From the NCBI RefSeq assembly GCF_988242995.1, contig NZ_OZ547043.1: 64,000 nt of DNA. One strand, written 5' to 3'. This document shows positions 35,625 through 61,734 of the stretch, one piece after another. The notes beneath the pieces are model-generated. The model saw only the letters and a program-made list of their open reading frames with translations. It had not been told where the DNA came from and did not search any database. Every line of letters starts with the position of its first letter. The stretch's first letter is position 1. A program made the translations under genes and the position numbers.

Positions 35625-36337
35625 TTGTGCACAGAAAACCCCCAGCTAGGCTGGGGGTTCCGGAAAGCTTTCAGCTTTGAGCCAGTTATTAAAACCCCTT
35701 TTGATTTGTTAAAACACTTTGCGGTCTGGCAACTGCAAGTGTCAAACAAGAAATCAAAAGGGGGTCCCAATGGGGAACGAAAAGAGCTTAGCGCACACCC
35801 GATGGAACTGTAAATATCACATAGTTTTTGCGCCAAAATACCGAAGACAGGTGTTCTACAGAGAGAAGCGTAGAGCAATAGGCAGTATTTTGAGAAAGCT
35901 GTGTGAGTGGAAAAGCGTACGGATTCTGGAAGCTGAATGCTGTGCAGATTATATCCATATGCTTGTGGAGATCCCGCCCAAAATGAGCGTATCCGGCTTT
36001 ATGGGATATCTGAAAGGGAAAAGCAGTCTGATGCTTTACGAGCAGTTTGGTGATTTGAAATTCAAATACAGGAACAGGGAGTTCTGGTGCAGAGGGTACT
36101 ACGTCGATACAGTGGGTAAGAACACGGCGAAGATACAGGATTACATAAAGCACCAGCTTGAAGAGGATAAAATGGGAGAGCAGTTATCGATTCCCTATCC
36201 GGGCAGCCCGTTTACGGGCCGTAAGTAACGAAGTTGGATGCAAATGTCAGATCGTGTGCGCCTGTTAGGGCGCGGCTGGTAAGAGAGCCTTATAGGCGCA
36301 TTTGAAAAACCTCCGGCTATGCCGGAGGATATTTATT
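35625..36337 (+). mobile_element. IS200-type insertion sequence, copy A
   Basis: About 711 bp near-identical to copy B; left-end hairpin CCCCCAGCTAGGCTGGGGG, right-end hairpin CCTCCGGCTATGCCGGAGG; contains tnpA. Confidence 0.9.
35770..36228 (+). CDS. tnpA: IS200/IS605 family Y1 (HUH) transposase TnpA
   Basis: 152 aa MGNEKSLAHTRWNCKYHIVFAPKYRRQVFY with HxH motif CADYIHMLVEIPP. Confidence 0.92.
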   Translation: MGNEKSLAHTRWNCKYHIVFAPKYRRQVFYREKRRAIGSILRKLCEWKSVRILEAECCADYIHMLVEIPPKMSVSGFMGYLKGKSSLMLYEQFGDLKFKYRNREFWCRGYYVDTVGKNTAKIQDYIKHQLEEDKMGEQLSIPYPGSPFTGRK

Positions 36338-42378: not shown

Positions 42379-42810
42379 ATGGCAAAAGTATTTACACCAG
42401 AAGAGCGGGAAAAAATTAAAGGGCAGGTTGTTGAACTTGTACGTCTGAGCGGTCGCGAGACGTTACGGGCTCTGGAGGCTAAAACCGGTGCATCAAGGTA
42501 TTACATAAGCACTCTCGCCAGAGAACTGGTCGCCAGTGGTGATGTTTACAATTCAGGCTACGGATTATTCCCGTCTGAGCAGGCTCGTAAGGACTGGCAA
42601 AACGCCCGCAAAAAACTATCCAGGGCAAAGGTGAAAAAAACGGTTGTGGTTGATCCTGACCTTATCTGGTCATTACCAGACGGAGAAATACGCCGCTACG
42701 ACAGGCGCCTGAATATAATCTGTCGCGAGTGCCGGAAAAGCGAAGTTATGCAGCGTGTACTGGCATTTTACCAGAGTAATTTCAGGAGGTTGTCTGGTGA
42801 GCACGATTAA
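42379..42810 (+). CDS. Hypothetical protein with CxxC pair, function unknown
   Basis: 143 aa from MAKVFTPEEREKIKGQVVELV; contains IICRECRK. Confidence 0.55.
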   Translation: MAKVFTPEEREKIKGQVVELVRLSGRETLRALEAKTGASRYYISTLARELVASGDVYNSGYGLFPSEQARKDWQNARKKLSRAKVKKTVVVDPDLIWSLPDGEIRRYDRRLNIICRECRKSEVMQRVLAFYQSNFRRLSGEHD

Positions 42811-42843
42811 CTACTAGGGGGGATAACAATAAAATAAAGCCTC

Positions 42844-43884
42844 CTAGGAGGCTTTGATTATATTAAGCAAATGTTTTCCAATCGTTTCAGACATCTTCGG
42901 AGGGACCGCATTTCCTATTTGACGAGCCCGAGATTGCAAAGAACCAATAAATTTATAATCCAAAGGAAATGTTTGTAGACACGCTGCTTCACGAACCGAT
43001 ATTGCTCGATTTTGTGTTGGATGTCCAAAACGTCCATTTGAATAGCTAATACAACGAGTTGTTAGTCCGCTGGCTGGTTTGTCCCAACTCAAACGTCCAT
43101 ATACGTCTGTATGCCCTTTATGGTTACGATGGCATTCTAAAATCAATTCATCTGGCCAAAATTCTCGACTTCCACCTTCAGGAGTGCATTTTATTCTACG
43201 TAAATTAAGCTCTGATAAGCGTGCAGCTTCATGATCAGGAATACTATTATGCTTTTCTCCTGCTTCTATCTTCGGTAAATTAGCGATCCAGTCCTTTACT
43301 GTTGAATAGGGAGTATTTCCAACCCCATGTGTAGGAGAAGGCAATGCGACATAAAAATCCTTGGATGCAATGAGCACTAATCTTTCTCGCGTCTGTGGTA
43401 CACCGTACCACGCAGCTGGCATTACTTTATAATCTACACTATATCCCTTTGATGAAAGCATTTCTAAAAACATCATGAATGTTCCTTCATTTTTGTTAAA
43501 CTTTTGCATTCCTGGCACGTTTTCAACAAAAATAAAATCAGGCATATAATGCTCTACAAAGCGACTGAATTCCTTTAATAGATCTAATCGTGGATCATCA
43601 TTTTTCTTATTTGAGTTTTGCTTAGAGTACGGTTGACAAGGCGCACATCCTGAAAAAAGAATGTAATCATTACGATGTTTTTTTACTAACTTGTTTATGG
43701 CATTGTTGTCGATTAACCTAATGTCCGAGTTAATAAAAGCAGCCTGCGGGAAATTTGCACGAAATGAACTGGCTGCATCAACGTCGAAATCGAGGCCAAA
43801 AACAATATCCATTCCAGCTTGATGGAAACCTTGGCTGGTTCCACCACAACCGGAAAAGAAGTCAAACACTTTGATTTTTTTCAT
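42844..43884 (-). CDS. DNA (cytosine-5)-methyltransferase
   Basis: 346 aa from MKKIKVFDFFSGCGG; motif I FSGCGG, motif IV GCAPCQPYS, motif VI ENVPGM, motif VIII QTRERLVLIA, motif X GNAVPP; RBS AGAGGGA. Confidence 0.9.
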   Translation of the reverse strand: MKKIKVFDFFSGCGGTSQGFHQAGMDIVFGLDFDVDAASSFRANFPQAAFINSDIRLIDNNAINKLVKKHRNDYILFSGCAPCQPYSKQNSNKKNDDPRLDLLKEFSRFVEHYMPDFIFVENVPGMQKFNKNEGTFMMFLEMLSSKGYSVDYKVMPAAWYGVPQTRERLVLIASKDFYVALPSPTHGVGNTPYSTVKDWIANLPKIEAGEKHNSIPDHEAARLSELNLRRIKCTPEGGSREFWPDELILECHRNHKGHTDVYGRLSWDKPASGLTTRCISYSNGRFGHPTQNRAISVREAACLQTFPLDYKFIGSLQSRARQIGNAVPPKMSETIGKHLLNIIKAS

Positions 43885-43907
43885 TTTTCCCTCTGCATCC
43901 AGAATCA

Positions 43908-45737
43908 CTACCTAATGATACCACGGTCAAGAGCCTGAGTAATTATTTTTCTTATTTTTATAAATTCAGGCAATTCATTTTTAAGTCTTGCGGTCATCAT
44001 TTGTTGGAGGCAAAAAATTTCCTCTGCATTTACTTCTTCTTTATCATACAGGTGTTGCGCTAATAATCTTATTTGATTCTTATACAGTTCTGGATCATTA
44101 GAACTCCAGGTCTGTGAATCAATTATTTCTTTTTCACTTGGCGTAATTGCCTTTTCAATGAGTAATTGTTCGGGAGTATCAAATGGTAAATACTTCACTT
44201 TATTGAATGCATACTCAAGCACTTGCCTTTTGAGTCTATTAGATTCTTGTTCATTTTTTTTGCCATTACTACCACTGGCATTGATAATTAACTCGCAACC
44301 ATAATATTTGCACATTGTATTAACTAAATCAGCATCAGCAATTTCACTAATTCTTACTGGTTTTATTTTTTTGTTTTTATCACCATCAAGTAAAAACAAA
44401 ATATCATTGCGTTCTACCACAGCGTAACTGGGAAGATGCTTGCTTAAAATGGTCTCCGAACCACCTGGTATATAACTTACACTAAATGATAAGCTTAATC
44501 TTTCATCATTTTTAATCGCTTTATCTATAATTGCTTTAGCTAATTTATCTTCTACAATTATTGTTTTCTTGTTAATATCATGCCCTAGCTCTATAAAAGC
44601 TTCATCCGGTGCTATATTTTGAACTATTTTAGCTGTTTCACTCTCTTCATCAAAAACAAATAATTTAATGGCATCTTTGGGAAGAGTGTTCACAATAACA
44701 GGAGAATGGGTTGATATTACCACTTGATGTTTTTTCTGCTCAACAATAGAGTACAGAACATCCATCATCCTTTTTTGTGCACCAGGGTGAAGTGAAACTT
44801 CTGGTTCGTCAAGAAGAATTAATGAATTAGGTTTGGCCGAATAAATATTGAGTATTAGTGAAACTATTGCAAATTCACCACTTCCAGCAAACGCTTCTGT
44901 ATAGTTCAACTTATCAGTTGAAAGTAAAGCGGTTCCTCCTCTGGTTCCAAATAACCGATGCTCAAGAAATTTAATGACTTTATATTTTTTCCCTAATATA
45001 AATGAGACGTGCTCAACTAGTTCTGGCGCCAAGGTTATATTTTTAACAATGGTTTCCGCCCCCCAGAGTCTTAAATTACTTAGCTTTTCATCAAAAGCTT
45101 TCTTTATATATTTAGATTTGCTTCTGATATAGTCTTGCTTTGTAATTAATACACCACTCTTCTTCTTTCTTAATTTAAAATCAGAGTGATACATACATCT
45201 ATCAAATGCACTTATTTCCGATCTGAAATCTAGGAAAACCAATCCCTTCTTGATTTTTTTCCATCTGGTTGCATTACTATTAGCACCCAGATCATCCGAA
45301 ATACTCTCCATGTTATCACCAACAGATGGTCGACTTGTTTCCCAATAATCGATTGTTTTCTTGGTAGCATTGATACGTGCTTGGAGTATTTCAACTAAAC
45401 GGCCATCAGCATTTTTATATCCATATATATATCTAGGTTTAAGAGAACTGCCATCAGCAAGTTTTAGGTCAGGAAACTCATCTGTTTCAGTTGTGAACCA
45501 ATAACGAGTTATATTTTTACCATGTGGGCAACCAAATAGCGCTTTGATAACAGAACTTTTATTAGTTCCATTTTTTCCTACTAAAGCCGTTATAGGGAAC
45601 TGAAAATCGATCCTTGCATTCTGCTCTATATTTTTAAAGTATGGAAAACGGATATGTTGTATGAATGGTTCAAATTCACCGTTTTTTAACGCGCACTGGA
45701 GTGTTCGAATTTTGCTCTTGTATGCGGAAGTGCTCAT
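43908..45737 (-). CDS. ABC-type ATPase fused to C-terminal Toprim-like domain (OLD-family-like nuclease candidate)
   Basis: 609 aa; Walker A LVGKNGTNKSS, Walker B/D-loop SLILLDEPEVSLHP, H-loop VISTHSPVI; C-terminal IIVEDKLAKA glutamate and FLLDGDKN DxD suggest Toprim; 23 bp upstream of MTase on same strand. Confidence 0.7.
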   Translation of the reverse strand: MSTSAYKSKIRTLQCALKNGEFEPFIQHIRFPYFKNIEQNARIDFQFPITALVGKNGTNKSSVIKALFGCPHGKNITRYWFTTETDEFPDLKLADGSSLKPRYIYGYKNADGRLVEILQARINATKKTIDYWETSRPSVGDNMESISDDLGANSNATRWKKIKKGLVFLDFRSEISAFDRCMYHSDFKLRKKKSGVLITKQDYIRSKSKYIKKAFDEKLSNLRLWGAETIVKNITLAPELVEHVSFILGKKYKVIKFLEHRLFGTRGGTALLSTDKLNYTEAFAGSGEFAIVSLILNIYSAKPNSLILLDEPEVSLHPGAQKRMMDVLYSIVEQKKHQVVISTHSPVIVNTLPKDAIKLFVFDEESETAKIVQNIAPDEAFIELGHDINKKTIIVEDKLAKAIIDKAIKNDERLSLSFSVSYIPGGSETILSKHLPSYAVVERNDILFLLDGDKNKKIKPVRISEIADADLVNTMCKYYGCELIINASGSNGKKNEQESNRLKRQVLEYAFNKVKYLPFDTPEQLLIEKAITPSEKEIIDSQTWSSNDPELYKNQIRLLAQHLYDKEEVNAEEIFCLQQMMTARLKNELPEFIKIRKIITQALDRGIIR

Positions 45738-45885
45738 TGTTTACTAAAGTCCATAATAGGCTATTAACAGGTTGAGGATGACATGATAACGATTTTTAAT
45801 GCAGATAAAAGAGGTTTGTTGGTTAGCACACAACAGAAAAAGTGACCTTACCGCTTGAACGAAAGGTAAGGGTAAGTAGGCTGTG

Positions 45886-46038
45886 ATGCAGCAAAAGACG
45901 ATGTTAATCGCCCTGATTGTCATCTGTATTACCGTCGTTGTGATGGCACTGGTAACAAGGAAAGACTTCTGCGAGGTACAAATCCGAACCGGTCAGACGG
46001 AGGTCGCTGTCTTCACAGCTTACGAACCTGAGGAGTGA
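45886..46038 (+). CDS. Hok/Gef-family type I toxin
   Basis: 50 aa MQQKTMLIALIVICITVVVMALVTRKDFCEVQIRTGQTEVAVFTAYEPEE; single TM then conserved C-terminal tail; 3' hairpin GCGAGGGAGAAATCCCTCGC at 46047-46066; below ORF-track size cutoff. Confidence 0.8.
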   Translation: MQQKTMLIALIVICITVVVMALVTRKDFCEVQIRTGQTEVAVFTAYEPEE

Positions 46039-46503
46039 GAGACCAGGCGAGGGAGAAATCCCTCGCCACCTCTGATGAGTCAGGCATCCTCAACGCACCC
46101 GCACTTAACCAACTTTGGCGGGTATATTTTATCTGTGAATATTTTTATAAAAATAATGCCCACGCACAGCATAAAACAAAAAGTATTACAGATAAAAAAG
46201 GAACGTAATGTGCAGATTTGTTGTTTTCCATATTTACTCACCTTAATATGATTAACCCTAATAGGGTTGTTATTTCAGCGGTTTTCAAATGAGATATTAT
46301 GGTGATCTGGCAGATTTGCATAACATTAAAATTTAATTTGTTTAACCGCTTTTAATAATAAGCGTTGTTTGTATCCCAGCAATCTGTTGTTTGGTTTTTA
46401 TTCCATTAAGGTGGGGCTTTACACTGGAGCCAGTTTATTTATACTTCATACGTCAGCCTGAACAACTGGCATCTGCTGCGCTGCGCCATCGAGAGATTAA
46501 GAA

Positions 46504-47103
46504 ATGGCGCATATACAACTGGTCAAACAAACCTCTTCCGGATTACTTCTCCCGGCGACGCCGGAGAGTTGTGATTTTCTGCATCAAATCAAAATAGGCG
46601 AGTGGATACACGCAGACTTTAAGCGTGTGCGTAACTACGCATTCCACAAGCGTTTTTTCAAACTCCTGCAACTGGGATTCGATTACTGGACTCCGGTCGG
46701 TGGGGCGATCACGCCTCGCGAACGAGAACAGCTGTCTGGTTTCGTTGATTACCTGTGCGAATCAGTTGGTCGGGAACACACGCCAGCCCTGAGTGATGCC
46801 GCAGAGCAATATCTGAATACAGTTGCGACACGCAGAACCCGGGATACGGCATTGCTAAAGTCGTTTGAGGCTTTTCGCGAGTGGGTAACCATTCAGGCTG
46901 GATTTTACACCGAACATTTTTATCCGGACGGTAGCCGCGGGCGTCGGGCAAAATCTATCGCTTTTGCGAATATGGACGAAACCGAGTTTCAGCAGGTTTA
47001 TAAATCTGTTCTGAATGTGCTGTGGAACTGGATTCTGTTCCGTAAATTTTCCTCTCCGGAACAAGTCGAAAATGTGGCCGCGCAGCTGCTGGAGTTTGCG
47101 TAA
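46504..47103 (+). CDS. Phage nin-region protein, DUF1367 (YbcN-like)
   Basis: 199 aa; position between replication genes and Q. Confidence 0.6.
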   Translation: MAHIQLVKQTSSGLLLPATPESCDFLHQIKIGEWIHADFKRVRNYAFHKRFFKLLQLGFDYWTPVGGAITPREREQLSGFVDYLCESVGREHTPALSDAAEQYLNTVATRRTRDTALLKSFEAFREWVTIQAGFYTEHFYPDGSRGRRAKSIAFANMDETEFQQVYKSVLNVLWNWILFRKFSSPEQVENVAAQLLEFA

Positions 47104-47393
47104 TGGTGGATTTACGTAAAGCGGCGCGGGGGCAGATGTGCACCGTCAGAATTCCTGGCTACTGCAATCACAATCCCGAAACATCTGTGCTGGCGCATTA
47201 CAGGCTGGCGGGGACGTGCGGAACAGCGACAAAACCACACGATATGCAGGCAGCGATTGCCTGTAGCTCATGCCACGATTTAATCGACGGGCGGGTAAAA
47301 ACCAGCGATTACACCAAAGAAGAATTACGCCTGATGCATGCAGAAGGTGTTTTTCGCACACAAGAAATCTGGAGAAAGGAAGGTTATTTATGA
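47103..47393 (+). CDS. Phage nin-region Cys-rich protein, DUF1364 (YbcO-like)
   Basis: 96 aa with CxxC...CxxC spacing (CTVRIPGYC, CSSCHD). Confidence 0.6.
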   Translation: MVDLRKAARGQMCTVRIPGYCNHNPETSVLAHYRLAGTCGTATKPHDMQAAIACSSCHDLIDGRVKTSDYTKEELRLMHAEGVFRTQEIWRKEGYL

Positions 47394-47932
47394 TTTACCC
47401 AACAAATACAGGCAAAAGCGGGGAACACCTTCGTCTCACCACGCTGGAAAGTGTCTGGATTCAGGGAAAACTGCGCATGTGGGGGCGCTGGTCGTATATT
47501 GGCGGCGGTAAGACGGGAAATATGTTTAACCAGTTGCTGGCATCCAAAAAATTGACGAAAACAGCCGTCAATGAAGCCCTGCGCAGGATGAAAAAAGCGG
47601 GAATAGAGAAACCTGAGCTGGAAGCGTTTTTGCGAGAGATGATCAATGGCAAGCAAAAGACCTGGCTGGCGCATTGTACTGATGCAGAGGCGTTATGTAT
47701 TGATAGAGTCATAAGTGAGGTGCTGGCAGAGCATCCTGGATTGATTAGTGTCCTCCGGCAACGGTATGAAGGACGGGGGATGACTAAGCGCAAAATGGCT
47801 GAATTGCTAAATGATGCACATCCTGAGTGGTGTTTTAGCACATGCGAAAAGCGAATTGCTAATTGGTTGGCTGTTGCTGAGTATGCCCTATATATTCCCA
47901 TGCGAGAATTATTTGCTCAAAAAATAGCTTGA
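47390..47932 (+). CDS. Late-gene antiterminator Q-like protein
   Basis: 180 aa from MIYPTNTGKSGEHLRLTTLE; immediately upstream of lysis region. Confidence 0.6.
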   Translation: MIYPTNTGKSGEHLRLTTLESVWIQGKLRMWGRWSYIGGGKTGNMFNQLLASKKLTKTAVNEALRRMKKAGIEKPELEAFLREMINGKQKTWLAHCTDAEALCIDRVISEVLAEHPGLISVLRQRYEGRGMTKRKMAELLNDAHPEWCFSTCEKRIANWLAVAEYALYIPMRELFAQKIA

Positions 47933-48038
47933 TTTTTTACGCATAAACTGCTTCAATTCCGGTATGCTTCGCAAAGCTGTATCGCGAGGCGAACCAAGCG
48001 CATGAACTTTACCAGAACCCGCCATTGAGCGGGTTTTG

Positions 48039-48751
48039 TTGTGCACAGAAAACCCCCAGCTAGGCTGGGGGTTCCGGAAAGCTTTCAGCTTTGAGCCAGT
48101 TATTAAAACCCCTTTTGATTTGTTAAAACACTTTGCGGTCTGGCAACTGCAAGTGTCAAACAAGAAATCAAAAGGGGGTCCCAATGGGGAACGAAAAGAG
48201 CTTAGCGCACACCCGATGGAACTGTAAATATCACATAGTTTTTGCGCCAAAATACCGAAGACAGGTGTTCTACAGAGAGAAGCGTAGAGCAATAGGCAGT
48301 ATTTTGAGAAAGCTGTGTGAGTGGAAAAGCGTACGGATTCTGGAAGCTGAATGCTGTGCAGATTATATCCATATGCTTGTGGAGATCCCGCCCAAAATGA
48401 GCGTATCCGGCTTTATGGGATATCTGAAAGGGAAAAGCAGTCTGATGCTTTACGAGCAGTTTGGTGATTTGAAATTCAAATACAGGAACAGGGAGTTCTG
48501 GTGCAGAGGGTACTACGTCGATACAGTGGGTAAGAACACGGCGAAGATACAGGATTACATAAAGCACCAGCTTGAAGAGGATAAAATGGGAGAGCAGTTA
48601 TCGATTCCCTATCCGGGCAGCCCGTTTACGGGCCGTAAGTAACGAAGTTGGATGCAAATGTCAGATCGTGTGCGCCTGTTAGGGCGCGGCTGGTAAGAGA
48701 GCCTTATAGGCGCATTTGAAAAACCTCCGGCTATGCCGGAGGATATTTATT
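48039..48751 (+). mobile_element. IS200-type insertion sequence, copy B
   Basis: Near-identical to copy A, same orientation, same terminal hairpins. Confidence 0.9.
48184..48642 (+). CDS. tnpA: IS200/IS605 family Y1 transposase TnpA
   Basis: Identical 152 aa product to copy A. Confidence 0.92.
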   Translation: MGNEKSLAHTRWNCKYHIVFAPKYRRQVFYREKRRAIGSILRKLCEWKSVRILEAECCADYIHMLVEIPPKMSVSGFMGYLKGKSSLMLYEQFGDLKFKYRNREFWCRGYYVDTVGKNTAKIQDYIKHQLEEDKMGEQLSIPYPGSPFTGRK

Positions 48752-48864
48752 GTTTCTGGTACTGGCGAACCTGATGTTTCATTTCTGGAGCGCGATTCCT
48801 GGCGGAATACCTAGAATCGAGACATTCTGGTAAAATTGTTTTCAGTACAGGATGTGGAGGTGAG

Positions 48865-49434
48865 ATGAGAGAACTACCTAAAGATTATTTTTTAGGAGTA
48901 GATGATGAGCTCGTCGATTATCTTGAAAAACAAGGGGAAGAGACGATACGAGAGATTCATCTTTCTAACAAAACCAATGTTGAGAATGGATACAAACTTC
49001 TGAACATTCAGATTGTTGGAATTGGTTCATCTTTTTTATTGCTGACACAGAAAACTAATTTCGATTTTCTCACCGCCGGAATTACCACATTTACATTACT
49101 ATGGACATGGTGCGCCATTTACTTGGTATGTACTGGTTTATCTGTGAAGGTTAGGGGCCTGATCAATGCCCCTCCTGATCATCTATATCATGAAAAATAT
49201 AAGGATATGGAGCCCTCGAGCTTTAAAATATTCGCTGATGCAGGATATTTAGGACCTGATAAGTTATTGCCGCTTATACGAAGGTATCGCCTTGTTGACT
49301 TGAGTGATACAGCAAGAGAGTTACTGTTGGAAAATGAGAAAATCCGCACGAGTCTCGATAAAGCAAGGATGTATACCATCCTTGCTCCGGTAGCGGCGAT
49401 GTTTATCTCGGCTGTTTTTTTATATGTTCAATGA
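48865..49434 (+). CDS. Hypothetical membrane protein (cargo between Q and holin)
   Basis: 189 aa with hydrophobic segments (GIGSSFLLLTQ, TFTLLWTWCAIYLVCTGL, ILAPVAAMFISAVFLYV); AT-rich. Confidence 0.5.
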   Translation: MRELPKDYFLGVDDELVDYLEKQGEETIREIHLSNKTNVENGYKLLNIQIVGIGSSFLLLTQKTNFDFLTAGITTFTLLWTWCAIYLVCTGLSVKVRGLINAPPDHLYHEKYKDMEPSSFKIFADAGYLGPDKLLPLIRRYRLVDLSDTARELLLENEKIRTSLDKARMYTILAPVAAMFISAVFLYVQ

Positions 49435-49659
49435 CTGAGTCGGCAGAATCTCCAACAAAAACACGACGTGTAGCAAAGTCTGTAGTACTTTGTGTTGGAG
49501 TTGGTTTTGGTGCCACGGGGTGCTGAGGTTTATTTTCACCTTGTGGTTTGTTTTTTTCAGACATAAAAATCCTCTTTGTTTGAATTGTTACTTTTGGCGA
49601 TTTAACGATATCAAACACGAGTATATACCGCCAGAAGCTTAATCTGGCACTCCATCTGA

Positions 49660-49685
49660 CCCCGGCATGTCCCGGGGCTTTTTCG
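49660..49685 (+). terminator. Hairpin plus T-run upstream of holin (possible tR'-like terminator)
   Basis: CCCCGG-CATGTC-CCGGGG followed by CTTTTT. Confidence 0.4.
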
Positions 49686-49781
49686 TTGTTAGGCTCCGGA
49701 AACATCCTCGACTTCTTGTTAGCAAGCCTGAGAGCCTGAATCTTACACTTAGCACCATCCGAACTCTCGGAGGTGAGGCTT

Positions 49782-50123
49782 ATGAAAATGCACAATGCCC
49801 CTCATTCCTGGCCTGACTTACTGGAACTCTTACAAAGTTGGTGGCGTGGAGATACGCCGCTGGGTGCAGTGGTTATGTCAATTATTATGGCTGGTTTGCG
49901 CATTGCCTATTTTGGCGGTGGCGGCGGCTGGAAACGAAAAACGCTTGAGATTCTGCTTTGTGGTGCTCTGACGCTGACCTTTGCATCCGCGCTTGAGTAT
50001 GTCGGATGGCCTAAATCACTTTCTGTTGCCATTGGTGGTGGGGTGGGGCTGATTGGTGTTGATGCTATTCGTAGTGCGGCAATGAGGGTCATCGGTAACA
50101 AGTTCGGTGCCCATAAGGAGTAA
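49782..50123 (+). CDS. Class I holin with dual-start motif
   Basis: 113 aa from MKMHNAPHS (Met-Lys-Met like lambda S107/S105); hydrophobic segments; upstream of endolysin. Confidence 0.75.
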   Translation: MKMHNAPHSWPDLLELLQSWWRGDTPLGAVVMSIIMAGLRIAYFGGGGGWKRKTLEILLCGALTLTFASALEYVGWPKSLSVAIGGGVGLIGVDAIRSAAMRVIGNKFGAHKE

Positions 50124-50126
50124 TTA

Positions 50127-50603
50127 ATGCAGACACTTAATTCCCAGCGTAAAGCTTTCCTTGATATGGTGGCATGGTCAGAAGGAACAGATAACGGACG
50201 GCAGAAAACCAGAAATCACGGTTATGATATTATTGTCGGTGGCGAACTGTTCACTGATTACTCCGATCACCCCCGCAAACTTGTCACGCTAAATCCGAAA
50301 CTCAAATCAACAGCCGCTGGACGTTACCAGCTTCTTTCACGCTGGTGGGATGCCTACCGCAAGCAACTTGGCCTGAAAGATTTTTCTCCAGAAAGTCAGG
50401 ATGCTGTAGCGCTGCAGCAGATTAAAGAGCGTGGCGCTTTGCCGATGATTGATCGCGGTGATATCCGTCAGGCTATCGACCGTTGCAGCAATATATGGGC
50501 TTCACTGCCGGGCGCTGGTTATGGTCAGTTCGAGCATAAGGCTGACAGTCTGATTGCAAAATTCAAAGAAGCTGGCGGAACGGTCAGAGAGATTGAGGTA
50601 TGA
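50127..50603 (+). CDS. Lambda R-like endolysin (lytic transglycosylase)
   Basis: 158 aa; near-identical over most of its length to lambda R as recalled ([28 protein letters not shown]). Confidence 0.92.
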
Positions 50604-51064
50604 GCAGAGTAACCGCGATTATCTCCGCTCTGGTTATCTGCATCGTCGTCTGCCTGTCATGGGGTGTTAATCATTACCGTGATAACGCCATCGCCTACAA
50701 AGAACAGCGCGACAAAAATGCCAGAGAACTGAAGCTGGCGAACGCGGCAATTACTGAGATGCAGATGCGTCAGCGTGATGTTGCTGCGCTCGATGCAAAA
50801 TACACGAAGGAGTTAGCTGATGCGAAAGCTGAAAATGATGCTCTGCGTGATGATGTTGCCGCTGGTCGTCGTCGGTTGCACATCAAAGCAGTCTGTCAGT
50901 CAGTGCGTGAAGCCACCACCGCCTCCGGCGTGGATAATGCAGCCTCCCCCCGACTGGCAGACACCGCTGAACGGGATTATTTCACCCTCCGGGAACGACT
51001 GGTAATGATGCAGGCCCAACTTGAAGGTGCTCAGCAATACATAACCGAGCAGTGTTTAAAGTAA
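50600..51064 (+). CDS. Spanin inner-membrane subunit Rz
   Basis: 154 aa [30 protein letters not shown]; overlaps endolysin stop. Confidence 0.9.
50820..51005 (+). CDS. Spanin outer-membrane lipoprotein Rz1 (embedded in Rz, +1 frame)
   Basis: 61 aa; lipobox VVGC and proline-rich [15 protein letters not shown]. Confidence 0.88.
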
Positions 51065-51201
51065 AATCTTAACTACAATATGATTCATTTTGATGATTGT
51101 TTCATAAGGAACAGTGAAGTAAGATCTAAGAGGAGTTAAATTTTATACAGTATAATCATAATATTGCAGCAAGGTGGTTATAATTGAAAGAATATTTAGA
51201 T

Positions 51202-52659
51202 ATGAATACATCTCATGTAAGAGTTGTTACTCATATGTGTGGGTTCCTGGTTTGGCTCTATAGTCTTTCAATGTTGCCACCAATGGTTGTAGCATTGTTT
51301 TATAAAGAAAAAAGCCTGTTTGTTTTCTTTATAACTTTCGTTATATTTTTTTGCATTGGTGGCGGAGCGTGGTATACAACTAAGAAATCTGGCATTCAAT
51401 TACGTACCCGTGATGGGTTTATTATAATTGTAATGTTTTGGATTTTGTTTTCTGTTATTAGTGCATTCCCTTTATGGATTGACTCAGAACTTAATTTAAC
51501 GTTCATTGATGCTCTGTTTGAAGGGGTTTCTGGAATAACAACAACAGGAGCAACTGTAATTGATGATGTTAGTTCATTACCTCGGGCATATTTGTACTAT
51601 CGGTCACAGTTAAATTTTATAGGTGGTTTAGGAGTTATTGTTCTGGCGGTTGCTGTATTGCCATTATTGGGTATTGGTGGTGCAAAGCTTTATCAGTCAG
51701 AAATGCCGGGGCCATTTAAGGATGACAAACTCACTCCCCGCCTGGCCGATACGTCACGGACACTGTGGATAACTTATTCTTTATTAGGTATTGCTTGTAT
51801 TGTCTGTTATAGACTTGCAGGAATGCCTTTGTTTGATGCTATTTGTCACGGGATTTCCACAGTTTCGCTTGGTGGTTTCTCAACTCATAGCGAGAGTATC
51901 GGATATTTTAATAACTATTTGGTTGAGCTGGTGGCTGGTTCTTTTTCCCTGCTATCGGCTTTCAACTTCACTCTTTGGTATATTGTTATTAGCAGGAAAA
52001 CGATAAAACCTTTAATCAGAGATATTGAACTTCGTTTCTTTCTGTTAATAGCCTTAGGTGTGATCATTGTTACCTCTTTCCAGGTCTGGCATATAGGTAT
52101 GTATGACTTGCATGGAAGTTTTATTCATTCGTTTTTTCTTGCCAGCTCCATGCTCACTGATAATGGTTTAGCTACGCAGGATTATGCAAGTTGGCCCACG
52201 CACACGATAGTGTTTTTGCTGTTGTCAAGTTTCTTTGGGGGATGTATAGGTTCAACTTGTGGTGGAATTAAGTCACTTCGATTTCTTATACTTTTCAAAC
52301 AAAGCAAACACGAGATAAATCAGCTTTCTCATCCCAGAGCGTTGTTGAGTGTAAATGTAGGAGGGAAGATAGTTACAGATCGTGTAATGAGGTCTGTATG
52401 GAGTTTCTTTTTTCTTTATACTCTCTTCACGGTGTTTTTTATACTGGTGTTAAATGGTATGGGATATGATTTTCTTACATCATTTGCAACAGTGGCTGCA
52501 TGCATTAATAATATGGGATTAGGTTTTGGGGCTACTGCATCGTCATTCGGAGTGCTTAATGACATTGCAAAATGTTTAATGTGCATAGCTATGATTCTTG
52601 GTCGCCTTGAAATTTATCCTGTTATTATATTGTTTTCAGGTTTTTTTTGGCGCTCCTAA
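51202..52659 (+). CDS. trkG: Potassium uptake protein TrkG (TrkH paralogue, prophage-borne)
   Basis: 485 aa from MNTSHVRVVTHMCGFLVWLYS; AT-rich codon usage. Confidence 0.92.
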   Translation: MNTSHVRVVTHMCGFLVWLYSLSMLPPMVVALFYKEKSLFVFFITFVIFFCIGGGAWYTTKKSGIQLRTRDGFIIIVMFWILFSVISAFPLWIDSELNLTFIDALFEGVSGITTTGATVIDDVSSLPRAYLYYRSQLNFIGGLGVIVLAVAVLPLLGIGGAKLYQSEMPGPFKDDKLTPRLADTSRTLWITYSLLGIACIVCYRLAGMPLFDAICHGISTVSLGGFSTHSESIGYFNNYLVELVAGSFSLLSAFNFTLWYIVISRKTIKPLIRDIELRFFLLIALGVIIVTSFQVWHIGMYDLHGSFIHSFFLASSMLTDNGLATQDYASWPTHTIVFLLLSSFFGGCIGSTCGGIKSLRFLILFKQSKHEINQLSHPRALLSVNVGGKIVTDRVMRSVWSFFFLYTLFTVFFILVLNGMGYDFLTSFATVAACINNMGLGFGATASSFGVLNDIAKCLMCIAMILGRLEIYPVIILFSGFFWRS

Positions 52660-52796
52660 TATATGGCTGATTTATAATTGTGAGTTTAATATTATGTTGA
52701 CTCACTCATTGATCCAATACCTAACTTTACCAGCAACACCTCCGTCCCCAGTAGCACTGGCTGCTGGGGTGCGTTTTATTCATAAAGCAAGGCTGT

Positions 52797-53588
52797 ATGA
52801 GCGAGAAATTAAAGATAGTCTATCGCCCATTACAAGAATTGTCACCGTATGCGCACAACGCCAGGACGCACAGTACTGAGCAGGTGGCACAACTGGTAGA
52901 AAGTATTAAGCAATTCGGCTGGACTAATCCGGTGCTGATTGACGAAAAGGGCGAAATTATTGCGGGTCACGGTCGTGTTATGGCGGCTGAAATGCTCAAA
53001 ATGGATTCTGTTCCGGTCATTGTTCTGTCTGGCCTGACGGATGAGCAGAAAAAGGCGTACCGCCTGGCAGATAATCGCCTGCCGATGAATGCTGGCTGGG
53101 ATGAAGATCTGTTGCGGATGGAGCTGTCGGACCTAATCAATGCTGATTTTGATGTCTCCCTGACAGGCTTCATCCCGACAGAAATTGATGAACTGTTGAC
53201 GGATGTTTTGCCCGGTACAGGAAATGAGGAGGAGCCGTATACGACGAAAATTGATACGCCTGTTTATGAGCCGTCGGGCGGTAAACCGGATATCAGTGAA
53301 CTGTACGACGATACGAAAACTCAGGAGCTGATCAGCCGGATACGTTCGGCGTCCCTTGAGCCTGATATTGAGAAATTCCTCCTGTGTGCGGCAGAACGTC
53401 ACACGGTGTTTAATTTCAGCAGAATTGCGGACTATTACGCTCACGCCCCCTCTGAAATTCAGTGTTTTTTCGAGGAGTCGGCGCTGGTGATCATTGATTA
53501 TCAGCAGGCTATTGAAAATGGATTTGTCCGGATGACGCAGCGCATGGTGGAGATCATGCATGGTGGTGAGGAGGAGGAATATGCGTGA
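52797..53588 (+). CDS. ParB-like nuclease domain protein (full-length counterpart of K-12 ynaK)
   Basis: 263 aa; ParB/Srx-type motif IIAGHGRVMAA. Confidence 0.65.
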   Translation: MSEKLKIVYRPLQELSPYAHNARTHSTEQVAQLVESIKQFGWTNPVLIDEKGEIIAGHGRVMAAEMLKMDSVPVIVLSGLTDEQKKAYRLADNRLPMNAGWDEDLLRMELSDLINADFDVSLTGFIPTEIDELLTDVLPGTGNEEEPYTTKIDTPVYEPSGGKPDISELYDDTKTQELISRIRSASLEPDIEKFLLCAAERHTVFNFSRIADYYAHAPSEIQCFFEESALVIIDYQQAIENGFVRMTQRMVEIMHGGEEEEYA

Positions 53589-54513
53589 TGATTTTTGCGC
53601 CTTTATTCTGACTCACGGGCGACCGGACAAAGTTCTGACTTACCGGACGTTGCGTCGTGCTGGCTATACCGGGAAAATTTTTATCGTTGTTGATGATGAA
53701 GATAAGACACGGCATCAGTACATGGCTGAATTTGGTGAACAGGTGCTGGTGTTTTCCAAAGCCGATATCGCCAGTCGTTTTGACGAAGCCGATAATTTCT
53801 GTGACCGCCGCTCAATTTTTTACGCCCGTAATGCCTGTTTCGACCTGGCAAAACTGGTCGGGTGTAAATACTTCATTCAGCTCGATGATGATTATCACGA
53901 GTTCCAGTTTCGGGTGGATCGCAACTATGACCAGGCCTATTTTCCGATAAGGAAACTGGATGCGATCCTTTCTGAAATGCTGGCGTACTACGAATCAATA
54001 CCTGCTCTTTCCATCGCTATGTCGCAGGGCGGGGATTTTCTTGGTGACAATGGCGGCCATGCTTCGTGGGTGAAACGCAAGGCAATGAACAGCTTTATCT
54101 GTTCGGTTGATCGACCGTTCTCATTCATGGGGCGCATTAACGAGGATGTGAATACGTACACGAATCTCGGTCGCTGTGGTGAATTGTTTATGACGATCGG
54201 TGCTGTCCAGTTAGGGCAGAAACAGACGCAGAAAAACAGCGGCGGAATGACCGAGCTGTATCTGGATTCCGGAACCTACGTTAAAAGTTTTTACTCCGTC
54301 ATGTATGCGCCGTCGTGCGTAAAAATTTCACTGATGGGTGCCAGCCATAAACGCATTCACCATCAGGTCACCTGGAACAACGCTGCAGTAAAAATCCTTC
54401 ACGAAAAATACAGGAAGAAGACACCCTGCATATCAATGGGGGTGACAAATGATTCCGTATTCGAAAGTCGAGTCTCTGGCAGCGTGCCGGATGACTGCAC
54501 AACAAATCGCTGA
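53581..54513 (+). CDS. Hypothetical protein with acidic DDDY motif, function unknown
   Basis: about 310 aa from MRDDFCAFILTHGRPDKV; IFIVVDDEDK and FIQLDDDYHEF segments. Confidence 0.5.
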   Translation: MRDDFCAFILTHGRPDKVLTYRTLRRAGYTGKIFIVVDDEDKTRHQYMAEFGEQVLVFSKADIASRFDEADNFCDRRSIFYARNACFDLAKLVGCKYFIQLDDDYHEFQFRVDRNYDQAYFPIRKLDAILSEMLAYYESIPALSIAMSQGGDFLGDNGGHASWVKRKAMNSFICSVDRPFSFMGRINEDVNTYTNLGRCGELFMTIGAVQLGQKQTQKNSGGMTELYLDSGTYVKSFYSVMYAPSCVKISLMGASHKRIHHQVTWNNAAVKILHEKYRKKTPCISMGVTNDSVFESRVSGSVPDDCTTNR

Positions 54514-54700
54514 CGTTCTGGATGTTGATCTGAACCGACTGAAAGAAAATCGGGAAGCAATGACAGATTTTTATGCGGCCATCCGTAAGGGCAGAGCGAA
54601 AGGTGAAGCCGAGTTACGAGCGGCATTGTTTAAGCTTGCCAGAAAAGGGGATGCCTTTGCTCTGCGCGAACTACTCAGGGTGGATAAAAATCAGGACTAA
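54491..54700 (+). CDS. Small hypothetical protein upstream of terminase (start uncertain)
   Basis: ORF 54449..54700; internal Met MTAQQIADVLDV gives about 69 aa. Confidence 0.4.
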   Translation: MTAQQIADVLDVDLNRLKENREAMTDFYAAIRKGRAKGEAELRAALFKLARKGDAFALRELLRVDKNQD

Positions 54701-54703
54701 CTG

Positions 54704-55798
54704 ATGAGCAGACCGGACTGGGGGGCGTTGCAGCAGGAGTATATTGCTGAATACACCCGCTCCGGTATATCTCCGGTGGCATGGTGTGAAGCAAGGGGAC
54801 TGAATTACGCAACAGCCCGTCGTTACATCAAAAAAACTCCGAAAAATGCGCAGACAGAAATGTGCAAAACTGCGCAAAAAAGTGCGCAGAAAAAATCTGC
54901 GCAGACTGCACAAAAGCGGAACGAAAAATCTCAGGAAAAAAAGCCAGTATTCGATGCGGGCCTGAATGAGGGCGACGCGGAGGAATTTTCGTTCTGTCCC
55001 GATGAATTCGGCATTTCTGACCAGCAGGCTAAGTTTGCGATGCTTGTTGCTCAGGGTAAAAAGCCGACAGAGGCGTACCGACTAGCCGGTTATGAGGGGC
55101 AAGGTGCGACAGCTAACAGCAACGCCAGTCGTATGCTTAGAAATGCCAGGGTTTTTCGCGCTATCAGCTACTTCCGCAATCAGTACCAGAAACGCTATAC
55201 CGCAGACCTGGATTTACTAGTGAGTCAGTTGATGGCTATTGTCCTGGCCGACCCCAATCAGCTTGCACAATTTCGCCGTGTTAACTGCCGTTATTGCTGG
55301 GGCGAGAATCATCTCTACCAGTGGCGCGATATAGCAGAATTCGACAAGGCAGCGGCGCAGGCTTCCAGAGATGGCAAACCCGAACCGGAATATGGAGGCC
55401 TCGGCTTTGTTGATAACGCCATACCCAATCCGGACTGCCCGAAGTGCTGCGGTGAGGGAACGGGACAGCTTTATATGGCTGATACCACTCTGCTTGATGG
55501 GGATGCGCGGCAATTATATGCAGGGGCAAAATTCGGAAAATTCGGCGTTGAGATCCTGCTGGAGGATAAGGCTGCCGCCCGGCGTGAATTGTTGCGTTTG
55601 TTTTCTGCTGGCGGGGCTTTATGTGCAGATAAACGGCTACAGGAACTGGAAATTGAACGGCGCAGAATGGAAAACCAGAAGCTGCGCAAAGAGATCGAAA
55701 CGGTGGAAGATAATGAACATCCCCAGCCTGTGGCGATCAATATTAATGTGGTTGATGCCAGAGTAAGGAGTGATGAAGATGATCTCTCCGACGCTTAA
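54704..55798 (+). CDS. Terminase small subunit (candidate)
   Basis: 364 aa; N-terminal HTH-like SGISPVAWCEARGLNYATARRYIKK; directly upstream of large terminase. Confidence 0.55.
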   Translation: MSRPDWGALQQEYIAEYTRSGISPVAWCEARGLNYATARRYIKKTPKNAQTEMCKTAQKSAQKKSAQTAQKRNEKSQEKKPVFDAGLNEGDAEEFSFCPDEFGISDQQAKFAMLVAQGKKPTEAYRLAGYEGQGATANSNASRMLRNARVFRAISYFRNQYQKRYTADLDLLVSQLMAIVLADPNQLAQFRRVNCRYCWGENHLYQWRDIAEFDKAAAQASRDGKPEPEYGGLGFVDNAIPNPDCPKCCGEGTGQLYMADTTLLDGDARQLYAGAKFGKFGVEILLEDKAAARRELLRLFSAGGALCADKRLQELEIERRRMENQKLRKEIETVEDNEHPQPVAININVVDARVRSDEDDLSDA

Positions 55799-57080
55799 TG
55801 TGCCTCAGGCGCGATTTCTTTCAATGCCCCATAAATTTAAAGCCTATATTGCTGGTTTTGGCTCGGGCAAAACATGGGTTGGGTGTAGCGGCATATGCAA
55901 GGGGATTTGGGAGCATCCAGGTATAAATCAGGGATATTTTGCGCCAACGTATCCCCAAATTCGCGATATTTTTTACCCTACAGTGGAAGAAGTTGCTGCT
56001 GACTGGGGATTGAACGTAAAAATTAATGAGGGAAATAAAGAGGTTCACTTTTATTACGGACGCCAGTATCGGGGAACCACTATCTGCAGATCGATGGAGA
56101 AGCCACAAACGATCGTCGGTTTCAAAATTGGTAATGCGTTGGTGGATGAACTGGACATTTTGCCGAAGGAAAAAGCCAGAACGGCGTGGCGCAAGATAAT
56201 TGCACGTATGCGTTATAAGATTGATGGACTTCGCAACGGTATTGACGTTACAACCACGCCGGAAGGATTCAAATTTGTCTACGAGCAGTTTGTTAAAGCC
56301 GTGCGTGAAAAAACAGAGCTGGCCTCACTGTATGGTCTGGTGCAGGCATCTACTTTCGATAATGAAAAGAACCTGCCAGCAGATTACATTCCTTCGCTTC
56401 TTGAATCATACCCTCCAGAGCTGATTAAAGCCTATCTTCGAGGACAGTTTACTAACCTGACAAGTGGTACTGTTTACCATCAGTTTGACCGGAAACTGAA
56501 TAATTGCGAAGAAGTGGAGCAGCCAGGGGAGCCGATTTATATTGGGATGGATTTTAACGTTGGAAAGATGGCGGGAATCGTCCATGTGCTGCGTTTGGGG
56601 CTTCCATGTGCGGTAACTGAAATCATCAATGCCTACGATACGCCGGATATGATCCGCATCATTAAAGAACGCTTCTGGCTGTATGATGGGAATGATTACC
56701 GGAAAGTGAGGGAAATTTATATTTATCCAGATGCTTCCGGGGATTCCAGAAAATCAAGTAACGCAAGTACGACGGATATAGCCCAGCTTAAGCAGGCTGG
56801 TTTTAACGTTGTGGTGAACAGCTCGAACCCGCCAGTAAAAGATCGCGTTAACTCAATGAATGCAATGTTCTGCAATGCCAATGGTGAGCGTCGCTATAAA
56901 GTTAATGTGAAGCGTTGCCCGTTATATGCCGAATCTCTGGAGCAACAGGTCTGGGATGAGAAGGGGGAGCCTGATAAAAAATCTGGCAATGATCACCCGA
57001 ATGATGCCGGAGGTTATTTCATCGTTAAGCAATTCCCTATTGTCAAACCGACCGGAAGAGTCACATCACTTCGGATTTAA
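55770..57080 (+). CDS. Terminase large subunit
   Basis: 436 aa; Walker A AGFGSGKTW; C-terminal acidic nuclease-like region; start codon uncertain among M1/M2/M4. Confidence 0.75.
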   Translation: MMKMISPTLNVPQARFLSMPHKFKAYIAGFGSGKTWVGCSGICKGIWEHPGINQGYFAPTYPQIRDIFYPTVEEVAADWGLNVKINEGNKEVHFYYGRQYRGTTICRSMEKPQTIVGFKIGNALVDELDILPKEKARTAWRKIIARMRYKIDGLRNGIDVTTTPEGFKFVYEQFVKAVREKTELASLYGLVQASTFDNEKNLPADYIPSLLESYPPELIKAYLRGQFTNLTSGTVYHQFDRKLNNCEEVEQPGEPIYIGMDFNVGKMAGIVHVLRLGLPCAVTEIINAYDTPDMIRIIKERFWLYDGNDYRKVREIYIYPDASGDSRKSSNASTTDIAQLKQAGFNVVVNSSNPPVKDRVNSMNAMFCNANGERRYKVNVKRCPLYAESLEQQVWDEKGEPDKKSGNDHPNDAGGYFIVKQFPIVKPTGRVTSLRI

Positions 57081-57082
57081 TT

Positions 57083-58489
57083 ATGGCTGATATATCAACA
57101 CCCAACCTCGACTATAACGATATGCTGGAGGCGTGGGATATTAACGACGCACTGATGGGCGGTACGCTTGAAATGCGCAGGCAGGGGGAAAATTATCTCC
57201 CAAAATGGCCTAACGAAGATGAAGACGCTTATAAAAAACGCCTGTCTGTGGCTACGCTACTTCCTGTGTATGAAGAAAGCATCAAGCAAAATATTGGGCG
57301 CATATTTGCAGAGCCGACAGTATTGAGTGAGGAAACGCCGGCAAAAATCAGGGAATATGCAGAAAATATCGACATGGAGGGGAGCCGACTGGATGTGTGG
57401 GCGCAGCAATTTTTCAGCCTCGCATTTCAGTATGGTGTGGCACATGCGCTGGTGGACTATCCACGAACGGATATGAAAGAGATTCGGACAAAAGCCGATG
57501 AAAACGCGACCGGTGGTCGTCCGTACGTTACGATGCTGAATCCACGCCAGGTTATTGGATGGAAATCGAAAGTTGAAAAAGGGAAAGTTGTTCTCACTGA
57601 TTTGCGTATAAAAGAGGTCATCATTATTGATGGTGATGATTTCGGGCAGAAGAAGGTGGAGCAGATCCGCCATATTATGCCCCGTCGAGTTGAAATTTAT
57701 CGACGTAGCGAAGGCACTAATGGCGAATCTGTCTGGACGCTTCATGAGTCATGGAATACCAGCCGTGATGATATTCCTCTGGTAACACTGTACACGAAGA
57801 AAACAGGATTTATGCGTGGTACACCGCCATTGCTTAATCTTGGCTTGCTGAATATCAAGCACTGGCAAAGCCAGAGCGAGCAGGACAATATTCTTCATGT
57901 TGCCCGCGTTCCATTGCTGGTGGCCTACGGGCTGGACAGGAATGAAGAACTGACGGTTGGTGCATCCACCGCTACGATTTTTGAGGACAGAACAAAAAAT
58001 GGCCTCGAATATGTTGAACATAGTGGCGCAGCGATAGAATCTGGCGAAACATCACTTGAGAAGCTGGAAAATCAGATGCGTCATGCCGGCGCTAAACTTC
58101 TGCGTGCTGAAAATACATCCACCAAATCTGTTGATCAGACTAATGAAGAGCGAATGCAGGAAAACTCGCCGCTTTATACAATGGCGAACTCCCTCGAAGA
58201 TGCTCTCGATAATATTCTCCAGATAATGGCGGAATGGATCGGAGAGAGTTGCGGTGGCAATGTGGATGTGCGCACTGAACTGGATGTATCTGCCCAGGTG
58301 TTTGACTCATCCTCCGCGCTGGCTGTTCAGTCATTGCGTCAGGGCGGTGATATACGTCAGATTGATGCGGTTCGGGTGTTGCAGGCGTTGAAATTTATCG
58401 ATCAGGATTCCCGTCCAGAGGAAGTGATCGATGAATTAAAAAATCAGAGTGTAATGCTGATGGAAATCAATGATGCAAACCGTGAATGA
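57083..58489 (+). CDS. Portal protein
   Basis: 468 aa following terminase; size and position. Confidence 0.7.
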   Translation: MADISTPNLDYNDMLEAWDINDALMGGTLEMRRQGENYLPKWPNEDEDAYKKRLSVATLLPVYEESIKQNIGRIFAEPTVLSEETPAKIREYAENIDMEGSRLDVWAQQFFSLAFQYGVAHALVDYPRTDMKEIRTKADENATGGRPYVTMLNPRQVIGWKSKVEKGKVVLTDLRIKEVIIIDGDDFGQKKVEQIRHIMPRRVEIYRRSEGTNGESVWTLHESWNTSRDDIPLVTLYTKKTGFMRGTPPLLNLGLLNIKHWQSQSEQDNILHVARVPLLVAYGLDRNEELTVGASTATIFEDRTKNGLEYVEHSGAAIESGETSLEKLENQMRHAGAKLLRAENTSTKSVDQTNEERMQENSPLYTMANSLEDALDNILQIMAEWIGESCGGNVDVRTELDVSAQVFDSSSALAVQSLRQGGDIRQIDAVRVLQALKFIDQDSRPEEVIDELKNQSVMLMEINDANRE

Positions 58490-59585: not shown

Positions 59586-59604
59586 ATAAATCATTTATTA
59601 CAAC

Positions 59605-59629
59605 AGGCTACCTTCGGGTGGCCTTTTTT
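59605..59629 (+). terminator. Rho-independent terminator after head morphogenesis gene
   Basis: AGGCTACC-TTCG-GGTGGCCT followed by TTTTTT. Confidence 0.6.
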
Positions 59630-59689
59630 ATTGCTGCGATCCGGATGGTGAGCAGCGTAACTGTCGGAAGACTTAAACCAGGTACTAAT

Positions 59690-60454
59690 ATGAAACTGAA
59701 AACGGTCGAGATTAACGGAAAACAATACGCAGAAATTGATACTGCTGGCCTGCCAGTTTATGTGCACGACGATGGTAAAGAAATTGGCTTCGATGCACCG
59801 CTGGCGACAAAAAAAATTACAGAGCTTAATGGCGAGGCAAAAAATCATCGCCTGGCTAAAGAAGCTGCAGAGGAAAAACTGGCTAAGTTTGCCGCTATCG
59901 AAGACCCGAAGAAGGCGATCGAGGCACTGGAAATGCTGTCAAAAATCGACCAGAAAAAGCTGCTCGATGCGGGACAGGTTGACCAGGTTAAGGCAGAAAT
60001 TACGAAAAATTTTCAGCAGCAATTAGATGAAGAAAAGCAACGCTCTCAGATGCTGGAGAAGCAGCTTTACGATTCTATGATTGGCGGTAGTTTTGCGGGT
60101 TCAAAATATATTGCCGATAAAATTGCGATCCCGGCAGATTTATTACAAGCCCGCTTCGGGCAGGCATTCAAAGTGGAAGAAGGGAGGATCGTTGCTTATG
60201 ACGCTTCCGGCAACAAAATTTATTCCCGCGCGAAGCCTGGCGAACTGGCGCAGTTTGATGAGGCGCTGGAGTTCCTTGTCGAAAATTACCCTCAGAAAGA
60301 CTACATCCTGAAAGCCAGTGGCAACAATGGCGGCGGCTCCCGTCCGACACAGCATGATATTGGTCAGAAAACGATGAAACGCTCTGCTTTTGATGCACTG
60401 GATGTTGCAGGTAAGCAAAACGCATTGAAAGACGGTATCACAATCGTTGATTAA
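59690..60454 (+). CDS. Scaffolding protein (candidate)
   Basis: about 254 aa from MKLKTVEINGKQYAEID; charged coiled-coil-like middle; precedes capsid gene. Confidence 0.5.
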   Translation: MKLKTVEINGKQYAEIDTAGLPVYVHDDGKEIGFDAPLATKKITELNGEAKNHRLAKEAAEEKLAKFAAIEDPKKAIEALEMLSKIDQKKLLDAGQVDQVKAEITKNFQQQLDEEKQRSQMLEKQLYDSMIGGSFAGSKYIADKIAIPADLLQARFGQAFKVEEGRIVAYDASGNKIYSRAKPGELAQFDEALEFLVENYPQKDYILKASGNNGGGSRPTQHDIGQKTMKRSAFDALDVAGKQNALKDGITIVD

Positions 60455-61692: not shown

Positions 61693-61701
61693 ACATTCAA
61701 A

Positions 61702-61722: not shown

Positions 61723-61734
61723 AATGGAGGGCAT

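Follow-up and report, generated by a model that had tools for sequence, protein, structure and literature searches.

A copy of the insertion sequence IS200 (IS200C type, here copy B) located directly behind the Q-like antiterminator gene of a Rac-family E. coli prophage is likely to have reached the T-run of a tR'-type terminator through its target preference, leaving the candidate promoter and Q-loading region intact and late expression little affected. The prophage fills the window (the whole analysed stretch of 64,000 nucleotides, from contig NZ_OZ547043.1 of assembly GCF_988242995.1) from approximately position 30074 to its end and adjoins ttcA, the chromosomal flank being dbpA-zntB-ttcA, with a best identity to complete E. 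coli genomes of 99.3%. The genes are ordered DUF1367, YbcO, Q-like, IS200, 189-aa ORF, holin, endolysin, Rz and trkG, the order DUF1367-YbcO-Q-lysis genes agreeing with that of relatives, and terminase and then head and tail genes come after holin, endolysin and Rz (Table 1). Copy B lies within positions 47933-48864, which represent the entire gap between the Q-like gene and the 189-aa ORF; directly behind Q, it falls within the late transcription unit. A sequence-only reading of this region had held that late transcripts must cross the IS and the 189-aa ORF before reaching a holin some 1.8 kb from Q, and both statements were borne out, the holin start at 49773 being 1841 bp past the Q stop codon.

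Table 1. Features of the late leader region and its surroundings, with the second IS200 copy of the window.
Feature	Position in window	Strand	Basis and remarks
IS200 copy A	about 35627..36337	+	100% identical to copy B, same orientation; between recE and racC homologues
DUF1367 protein	46504-47103		
YbcO	47103-47393		
Q-like antiterminator gene, 180 aa	47390..47932	+	Pfam DUF1133 361 bits; Phage_antitermQ PF06530 28 bits, cut-off 26
Candidate pR'-type late promoter	47929..47968	+	Phylogenetic footprint; -35 TTGATT 47929-47934 on Q stop codon, 17-nt spacer
Candidate promoter -10 region, TGc-TTCAAT	47949-47957	+	Predicted start near 47964
-10-like TATGCT, possible sigma-dependent pause element	47963-47968	+	Comparison
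Leader element with 9-bp direct repeat TCGCAAAGC / TCGCGAGGC, 13-nt period	47969..47990	+	Near-invariant in ~80 loci
tR'-type intrinsic terminator, stem CAGAACCCGC / GCGGGTTTTG, loop CATTGA, T-rich tail	48013..48042	+	-16.1 kcal/mol, z -4.1; hairpin 48013-48038
IS200 (IS200C type) copy B, 711 bp	48041..48751 or equally 48039-48749	+	Empty-site alignment to ON470614
IS200 left-end hairpin	48051..48073	+	-18.7 kcal/mol; within Rfam STnc490 match
tnpA, Y1 HUH transposase, 152 aa	48184..48642	+	Pfam Y1_Tnp E 5e-37
IS200 right-end hairpin, then ATATTTATT	48724..48742	+	Terminator-like on both strands; -15.9 kcal/mol, z -5.7
189-aa membrane-protein ORF, cargo between terminator and lysis genes	48865..49434	+	PHROG 11870 (unknown function), E 6e-108
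53-aa ORF, convergent with 189-aa ORF, same cargo block	49403..49564	-	PHROG 14506 (unknown function), E 2e-32
Second terminator-like hairpin, upstream of holin	49660..49677	+	Scan, also at equivalent position in relative L001; weak fold, -12 kcal/mol, z -1.2
Lysis cassette: lambda-family holin, endolysin, Rz	49773..51064	+	Pfam Phage_holin_3_1, Phage_lysis; relatives' annotation agrees

A Q-family antiterminator gene, the first component of a lambdoid late cassette, was recognized by PF06530, DUF1133 and PHROG models, the protein being assigned to PHROG 753 ('anti-termination protein Q-like') with an E value of 2e-79. Its relationship to the Q21/Q933W-type family is weak, as the PF06530 score barely exceeds the cut-off (28 versus 26 bits), and Q21 is the solved structure closest in sequence, at an E value of no more than marginal strength, 0.16; comparison together with this weak homology suggests that the 180-aa DUF1133 protein has Q activity. 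The relatives to which the locus was compared comprised 80 viral-contig loci in which Q is 90-99% identical, plus loci of Salmonella, Citrobacter and other E. coli (Q 76-87%), making approximately 100 IS-free loci in all. A second viral-contig scan with the Rac442 Q returned nearly the same loci and little additional diversity, and a match in SerU-LTIIb proved to be an unannotated Q remnant, uninformative on the promoter. The close IS-free 'phages' among the relatives (vB_EcoS-666R9 and similar records) are in silico prophage predictions (bioRxiv 10.1101/2022.06.29.498070), and so do not demonstrate that prophages of this type are active.

A common layout was apparent among these loci, in which ~60 nt of conserved non-coding sequence begin at the Q stop and are followed by ~25 variable nt and by a GC hairpin with a T-run situated 85-100 nt past the stop, the hairpin being formed at this same position by at least five unrelated sequences. 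The window conforms to this layout, and its sequence from the Q stop as far as the hairpin does not differ from the most common IS-free leader. Three diverged leader types carry a -35-like hexamer that overlaps the Q stop codon, namely TTGATT-17-TTCAAT after TG in the window, TTGATT-17-TATCTT in Rac442 and the near-consensus TTGACT-18-TATATT in the type with a 184-aa Q. At P0113-type loci (L206 and L208, about 2044-2190) the same leader is located ~75 nt past the Q stop, where it is non-coding, yet conserved, and coding constraint therefore does not account for its conservation. P0113 is also the commonest E. coli type of DUF1133 Q, being present on at least 1000 contigs. These comparisons place the predicted late promoter on the Q side of the IS, starting at the Q stop codon. 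The candidate -10 hexamer TTCAAT does not have A, the usual base, as its second letter, and the candidate promoter was not flagged by a simple promoter scan, whose sole call (TTGGCT-18-TATATT, 47867-47896) falls inside Q and is thus also upstream of the IS; this alternative was rated weaker than the stop-codon footprint because synonymous positions in it vary among relatives.

Two further elements of the leader are shared with relatives. The third position of the TAnGCT element at the predicted start varies, with A2 and T6 fixed, and its placement resembles the arrangement of lambda's sigma-dependent pause element. The 9-bp repeat, with the consensus TCGC(A/G)A(A/G)GC, is kept in E. coli, Salmonella and Citrobacter and is absent from Rac442-type and 184-aa-type leaders. 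We do not claim a functional RNA hairpin at 47966-47990, as the few variants observed alter one side and break pairs.

The leader is closed by an intrinsic terminator located between the candidate promoter and the late genes. In IS-free relatives the empty site consists of CAGAACCCGC-CATTGA-GCGGGTTTTG followed, across the insertion point, by TTGTTTCTGG, and a terminator scan calls an intrinsic terminator there (relative L001). Copy B was inserted within the T-run, and the first nine or so residues 3' of the hairpin are the same after the insertion (TTTTGTTGTG versus TTTTGTTGTT). The sequence-only reading had put the IS where the late promoter and qut site are expected, which the empty sites contradict, since both the candidate promoter from 47929 and the hairpin at 48013-48038 are identical to those of IS-free relatives and the IS occupies the T-run. 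The comparison with IS-free relatives that had been proposed as a check therefore upheld the idea in part: the IS does lie in the late leader and does carry a terminator, but the candidate promoter and qut region has not been displaced.

Right after the T-run the relatives cease to resemble one another, and more than ten unrelated classes of cargo begin there, including the 189-aa ORF, tRNA-Thr/Gly genes (tRNA genes in 683R6) and others. Searches of Pfam and PADLOC returned no match for either the 189-aa or the 53-aa cargo ORF. The 189-aa ORF, called a cargo ORF in the sequence-only reading, did not arrive with the IS; since IS-free relatives also possess it, it is native phage cargo, and a role for the IS as composite transposon or cargo carrier was rejected on the same ground. 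An extended -10-like motif, TGgTAAAAT at ~48838-48846, may provide the 189-aa ORF with a promoter of its own. Relatives with other cargo resemble the window only from the holin start codon onward, which leaves no conserved sequence or promoter just upstream of the holin, and the lysis and structural genes accordingly lie downstream without a promoter of their own. The holin frame itself contains closely spaced candidate starts, GTG at 49773, ATG at 49782 and ATG at 49788 (M-K-M; 49773-49790), a spacing reminiscent of lambda S with its dual-start holin/antiholin arrangement.

Copy B starts 107-109 bp past the Q stop, close to the 106 bp given by the sequence-only reading, the two equally valid placements arising from TT at both junctions. 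The insertion is clean and without target-site duplication, TT being all that the junctions have in common. Its identity is 99.3% to the element in Lambda_ev058 and 98.5-99.3% to IS200 copies in other phage records, and such copies carry the name IS200C in RefSeq. The Rfam family STnc490, which represents the IS200 left end/5'UTR, gave a full-length match at 48051-48174 (144.6 bits; gathering score 56). Of the traits of the IS200 group, a single Y1 ORF of ~150 aa, a length (711 bp) in keeping with the ~700-710 bp of these elements, which are without terminal inverted repeats, no target-site duplication and a left-end hairpin with structured 5'UTR (STnc490/art200) were all found. The transposase TnpA matches solved IS200-type and IS608 transposases with E values of 3e-22 to 3e-18 and retains the C-terminal tyrosine of DYIKHQ, but its HUH motif is not intact, as the first His is replaced by Tyr in both copies of the window (ADYIHML; codon 48364-48366 in copy B and ~35950-35952 in copy A). 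In an alignment with chains 2ec2 and 2a6m this position corresponds to the initial His of their DHIH, and ADHIHML is present in 14 of the 14 other copies examined. Judged by its sequence, the element is IS200 by descent and probably non-autonomous.

Of 5,426 complete E. coli genomes, 136 contain the exact 31-mer with the HUH His-to-Tyr change, each of them a single time, and in 129 cases it is located on a plasmid. Copy A, like copy B, is positioned directly 3' of a hairpin (AGCCTGCG-CCATA-CGCAGGCT-ATTTCTT). As an allele that is elsewhere single-copy is present here as two identical copies at proper hairpin targets, either a wild-type transposase acted in trans or the variant has residual activity. 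None of the 5,426 complete E. coli genomes contains the exact junctions of copy A or copy B, a finding that points to recent insertion in this strain alone; a unique insertion fits a recent neutral event and would equally fit a mildly harmful one. The two copies are in direct orientation, 12.4 kb apart, around the kil/sieB, immunity, replication and Q genes, and homologous recombination between them would remove the whole early region, a deletion that has not happened in the window. The segment at ~42787-46144 is absent from the relative ON470614 and contains, on the minus strand, a gene for a 609-aa ATPase (43908-45737) with matches to models of anti-phage defence (PADLOC HEC-04, E 1.5e-34; also OLD/Gabija/Septu-type ATPases).

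The position of copy B is one of habitual target choice. IS1541/IS200 elements in Yersinia pestis reportedly prefer terminator-like stem-loops. When every exact left-end match in viral contigs was collected together with two phage records, 22 distinct IS200 sites were obtained, of which ~20 are independent, and at each of the 22 a GC-rich hairpin with a T-rich tail precedes the IS in constant orientation, the hairpin ending 0-8 nt short of the left end. The 45 nt upstream of the IS fold with a mean of -16.7 kcal/mol, whereas 3000 TT-ending controls drawn at random from these loci average -7.6 kcal/mol (Mann-Whitney P = 4e-13). As the flanking hairpins vary in sequence and exist in the empty site, they represent targets and do not belong to the IS itself; the genes that precede them are of many kinds (lom-like, Rz, head decoration, tape measure and integrase). 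Several of the other copies are co-directional in late operons of predicted prophages behind terminator-like hairpins, after head-decoration (L101, L102 and L114), Rz-like (L093 and L107) and tape-measure (L111) genes. The target resembles the right end of the IS, in which a hairpin is likewise followed by ATATTTATT, and this would fit a Y1 transposase that recognises hairpins in single-stranded DNA. Terminator-like sequences have been described as overrepresented immediately upstream of IS200/IS605 elements (bioRxiv 10.1101/2025.07.22.666184). Given this general hairpin preference the position after Q needs no special explanation: that IS200 lands at a terminator is already known, and it is the place that is instructive.

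The order of events that we propose is that IS200C, which targets single-stranded DNA directly 3' of terminator-like hairpins and places its left end beside the hairpin, would have moved into the T-run of the intrinsic terminator at the end of the short late-operon leader, with no sign of selection for rewired late expression. The left-end hairpin is, as the sequence-only reading had stated, a documented barrier to transcription, acting as a bidirectional rho-independent terminator which stops ~85% of impinging transcripts (PMC4513863, PMC5435999). Without Q, transcripts would end at the phage terminator as before, and the left-end terminator of IS200 would present a second stop. A Q-loaded polymerase, on the other hand, 'ignores terminators', as its narrowed RNA exit channel blocks hairpin formation (bioRxiv 10.1101/651190), and if it passes tR' in this way, it should pass the IS hairpins and the hairpin at 49660 as well. 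With Q, such a polymerase would cross in turn the phage terminator, the IS left-end hairpin, tnpA, the right-end hairpin, the 189-aa ORF and the pre-holin hairpin. We thus infer Q-dependent read-through of both terminator and IS, by which strong attenuation of late expression would be unlikely; the effect on lysis and structural genes is expected to be small, with the Q-to-holin stretch longer by 711 nt.

An insertion of the same IS into the T-run of another antitermination-overridden terminator is found in Lambda_ev058 (LR597651) and PhiR63_2 (PV340574), where it occupies lambda tR2, between ren and ninB, upstream of Q and co-directional with the operon. The tR2 site consists of AGGCCTGC-TGGTAATC-GCAGGCCTTTTTATT, the IS and then TGGGGGAGAGG (LR597651, locus L197, 2470-2510 and 3205-3225; PV340574 is locus L198). 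Delayed-early transcription in both phages must cross the IS to reach Q. The suffix 'ev' designates phages plaque-purified from viromes (PMC6969025), and LR597651 is tied to that plaque-purified collection by the naming rule only. These cases differ from the present locus in terminator, operon and mode of antitermination, being of the N type in a delayed-early operon; the tR2 precedent therefore counts less for Q-type antitermination, on which our preferred reading depends.

Of the other explanations, one that we regard as unlikely is that the IS left-end terminator and untranslated IS RNA substantially block late transcription, crippling the prophage or making lysis and virion output delayed and weaker. 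Such a block is suggested by the ~85% termination exerted by the left-end hairpin in ordinary transcription (PMC5435999), by the strong hairpins at the two ends of the IS (-18.7 and -15.9 kcal/mol) and the 711 nt of RNA, poorly translated, which it adds, and by the uniqueness of the insertion among 5,426 complete genomes. Q-loaded complexes, however, ignore hairpin terminators and already have to cross the phage terminator and the 49660 hairpin; in predicted prophages other IS200 copies reside co-directionally within late operons, where they follow Rz, gpD, tape-measure and lom-like genes; and the same IS interrupts lambda tR2 of a phage whose name marks a plaque-purified origin. Downstream decay, moreover, is not indicated, as positions 48746-64000 align to an IS-free relative at 99.69% identity with zero gaps over 15,255 bp, a result which also speaks against the domesticated prophage that had been envisaged. 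That the insertion was adaptive, as a second terminator behind tR' that tightens lysogen silencing of cargo and lysis genes or as an aid to domestication in which copies A and B could delete the early region, we hold to be very improbable: tandem terminators should lower basal read-through, and the identical direct copies do surround the immunity, replication and Q genes, yet hairpin preference explains the position without selection, the insertion occurs in no other complete genome of the 5,426, no deletion has occurred and the late region is intact.

It is least credible, indeed hardly so, that the late promoter is located downstream of the IS, near the holin, which would leave the IS outside the late operon and of no consequence for it. 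The terminator-like hairpin at 49660-49677 could close a separate upstream unit and would be in keeping with such a promoter, for which the sequence-only reading had pointed to 49450..49780 as the place where it would undo its own argument. A simple promoter scan of 48752-49772, from the IS to the holin, nevertheless gave no promoter-like site, relatives with other cargo are similar only from the holin start codon, and the conserved non-coding element and terminator right after Q match the standard Q cassette. A further and rather improbable possibility is that IS200 copies behind antitermination-overridable terminators are silent in the lysogen and flooded with sense transcript on induction, tying the transposase to phage replication. 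N- or Q-modified polymerase would then also override the IS left-end terminator at a time when single-stranded DNA is plentiful owing to replication, an otherwise dormant IS would spread, and both Tyr-allele copies would be local hops, made via a wild-type transposase in trans or by a partly active variant.

The preferred reading, in which the element settled in the terminator T-run by target preference, may be set beside known systems. With terminator-adjacent insertions of IS200/IS1541 the locus shares the IS group, the spot 3' of a GC hairpin and T-run, and the co-directional transposase gene; in contrast to published IS200 cases, the hairpin here would be a terminator that belongs to a phage late operon, acts conditionally and can be overridden by Q. 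In published surveys the signal may partly stem from the internal hairpin of the IS, whereas the flanking hairpins considered here differ from one another and are present in the empty site. Group IIC introns also land just 3' of terminator stem-loops and so stay out of genes (summarised in PMC7923331), but do so by retrohoming with a ribozyme and reverse transcriptase and not by means of a Y1 HUH transposase acting on single-stranded DNA. In the lambda and Stx-phage cassette Q is followed by pR' with Q-binding and sigma-dependent pause elements, tR', cargo (tRNAs, stx) and lysis genes (bioRxiv 10.1101/651190; PMC6266700), and the locus has the same order of Q, promoter-like element, short leader, intrinsic terminator, variable cargo and holin-endolysin-Rz. 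It differs in its DUF1133-type Q, weakly related to Q21, in a -35 hexamer placed on the Q stop codon and in a predicted leader of ~80 nt. In Stx phages, stx is carried at the position that matches the cargo slot (PMC6266700).

For this locus the suspicion of a broken late switch is removed, as the candidate promoter and loading region is intact and the IS is situated where antiterminated polymerase should cross it. The locus represents a natural construct for measuring the Q-type override of the protective terminator of IS200. The comparison provides, in addition, a predicted map of the late promoter, leader and terminator module for the DUF1133 Q family, which is widespread and unstudied, a module positioned upstream of a cargo slot of the type that holds toxin genes in Stx phages.
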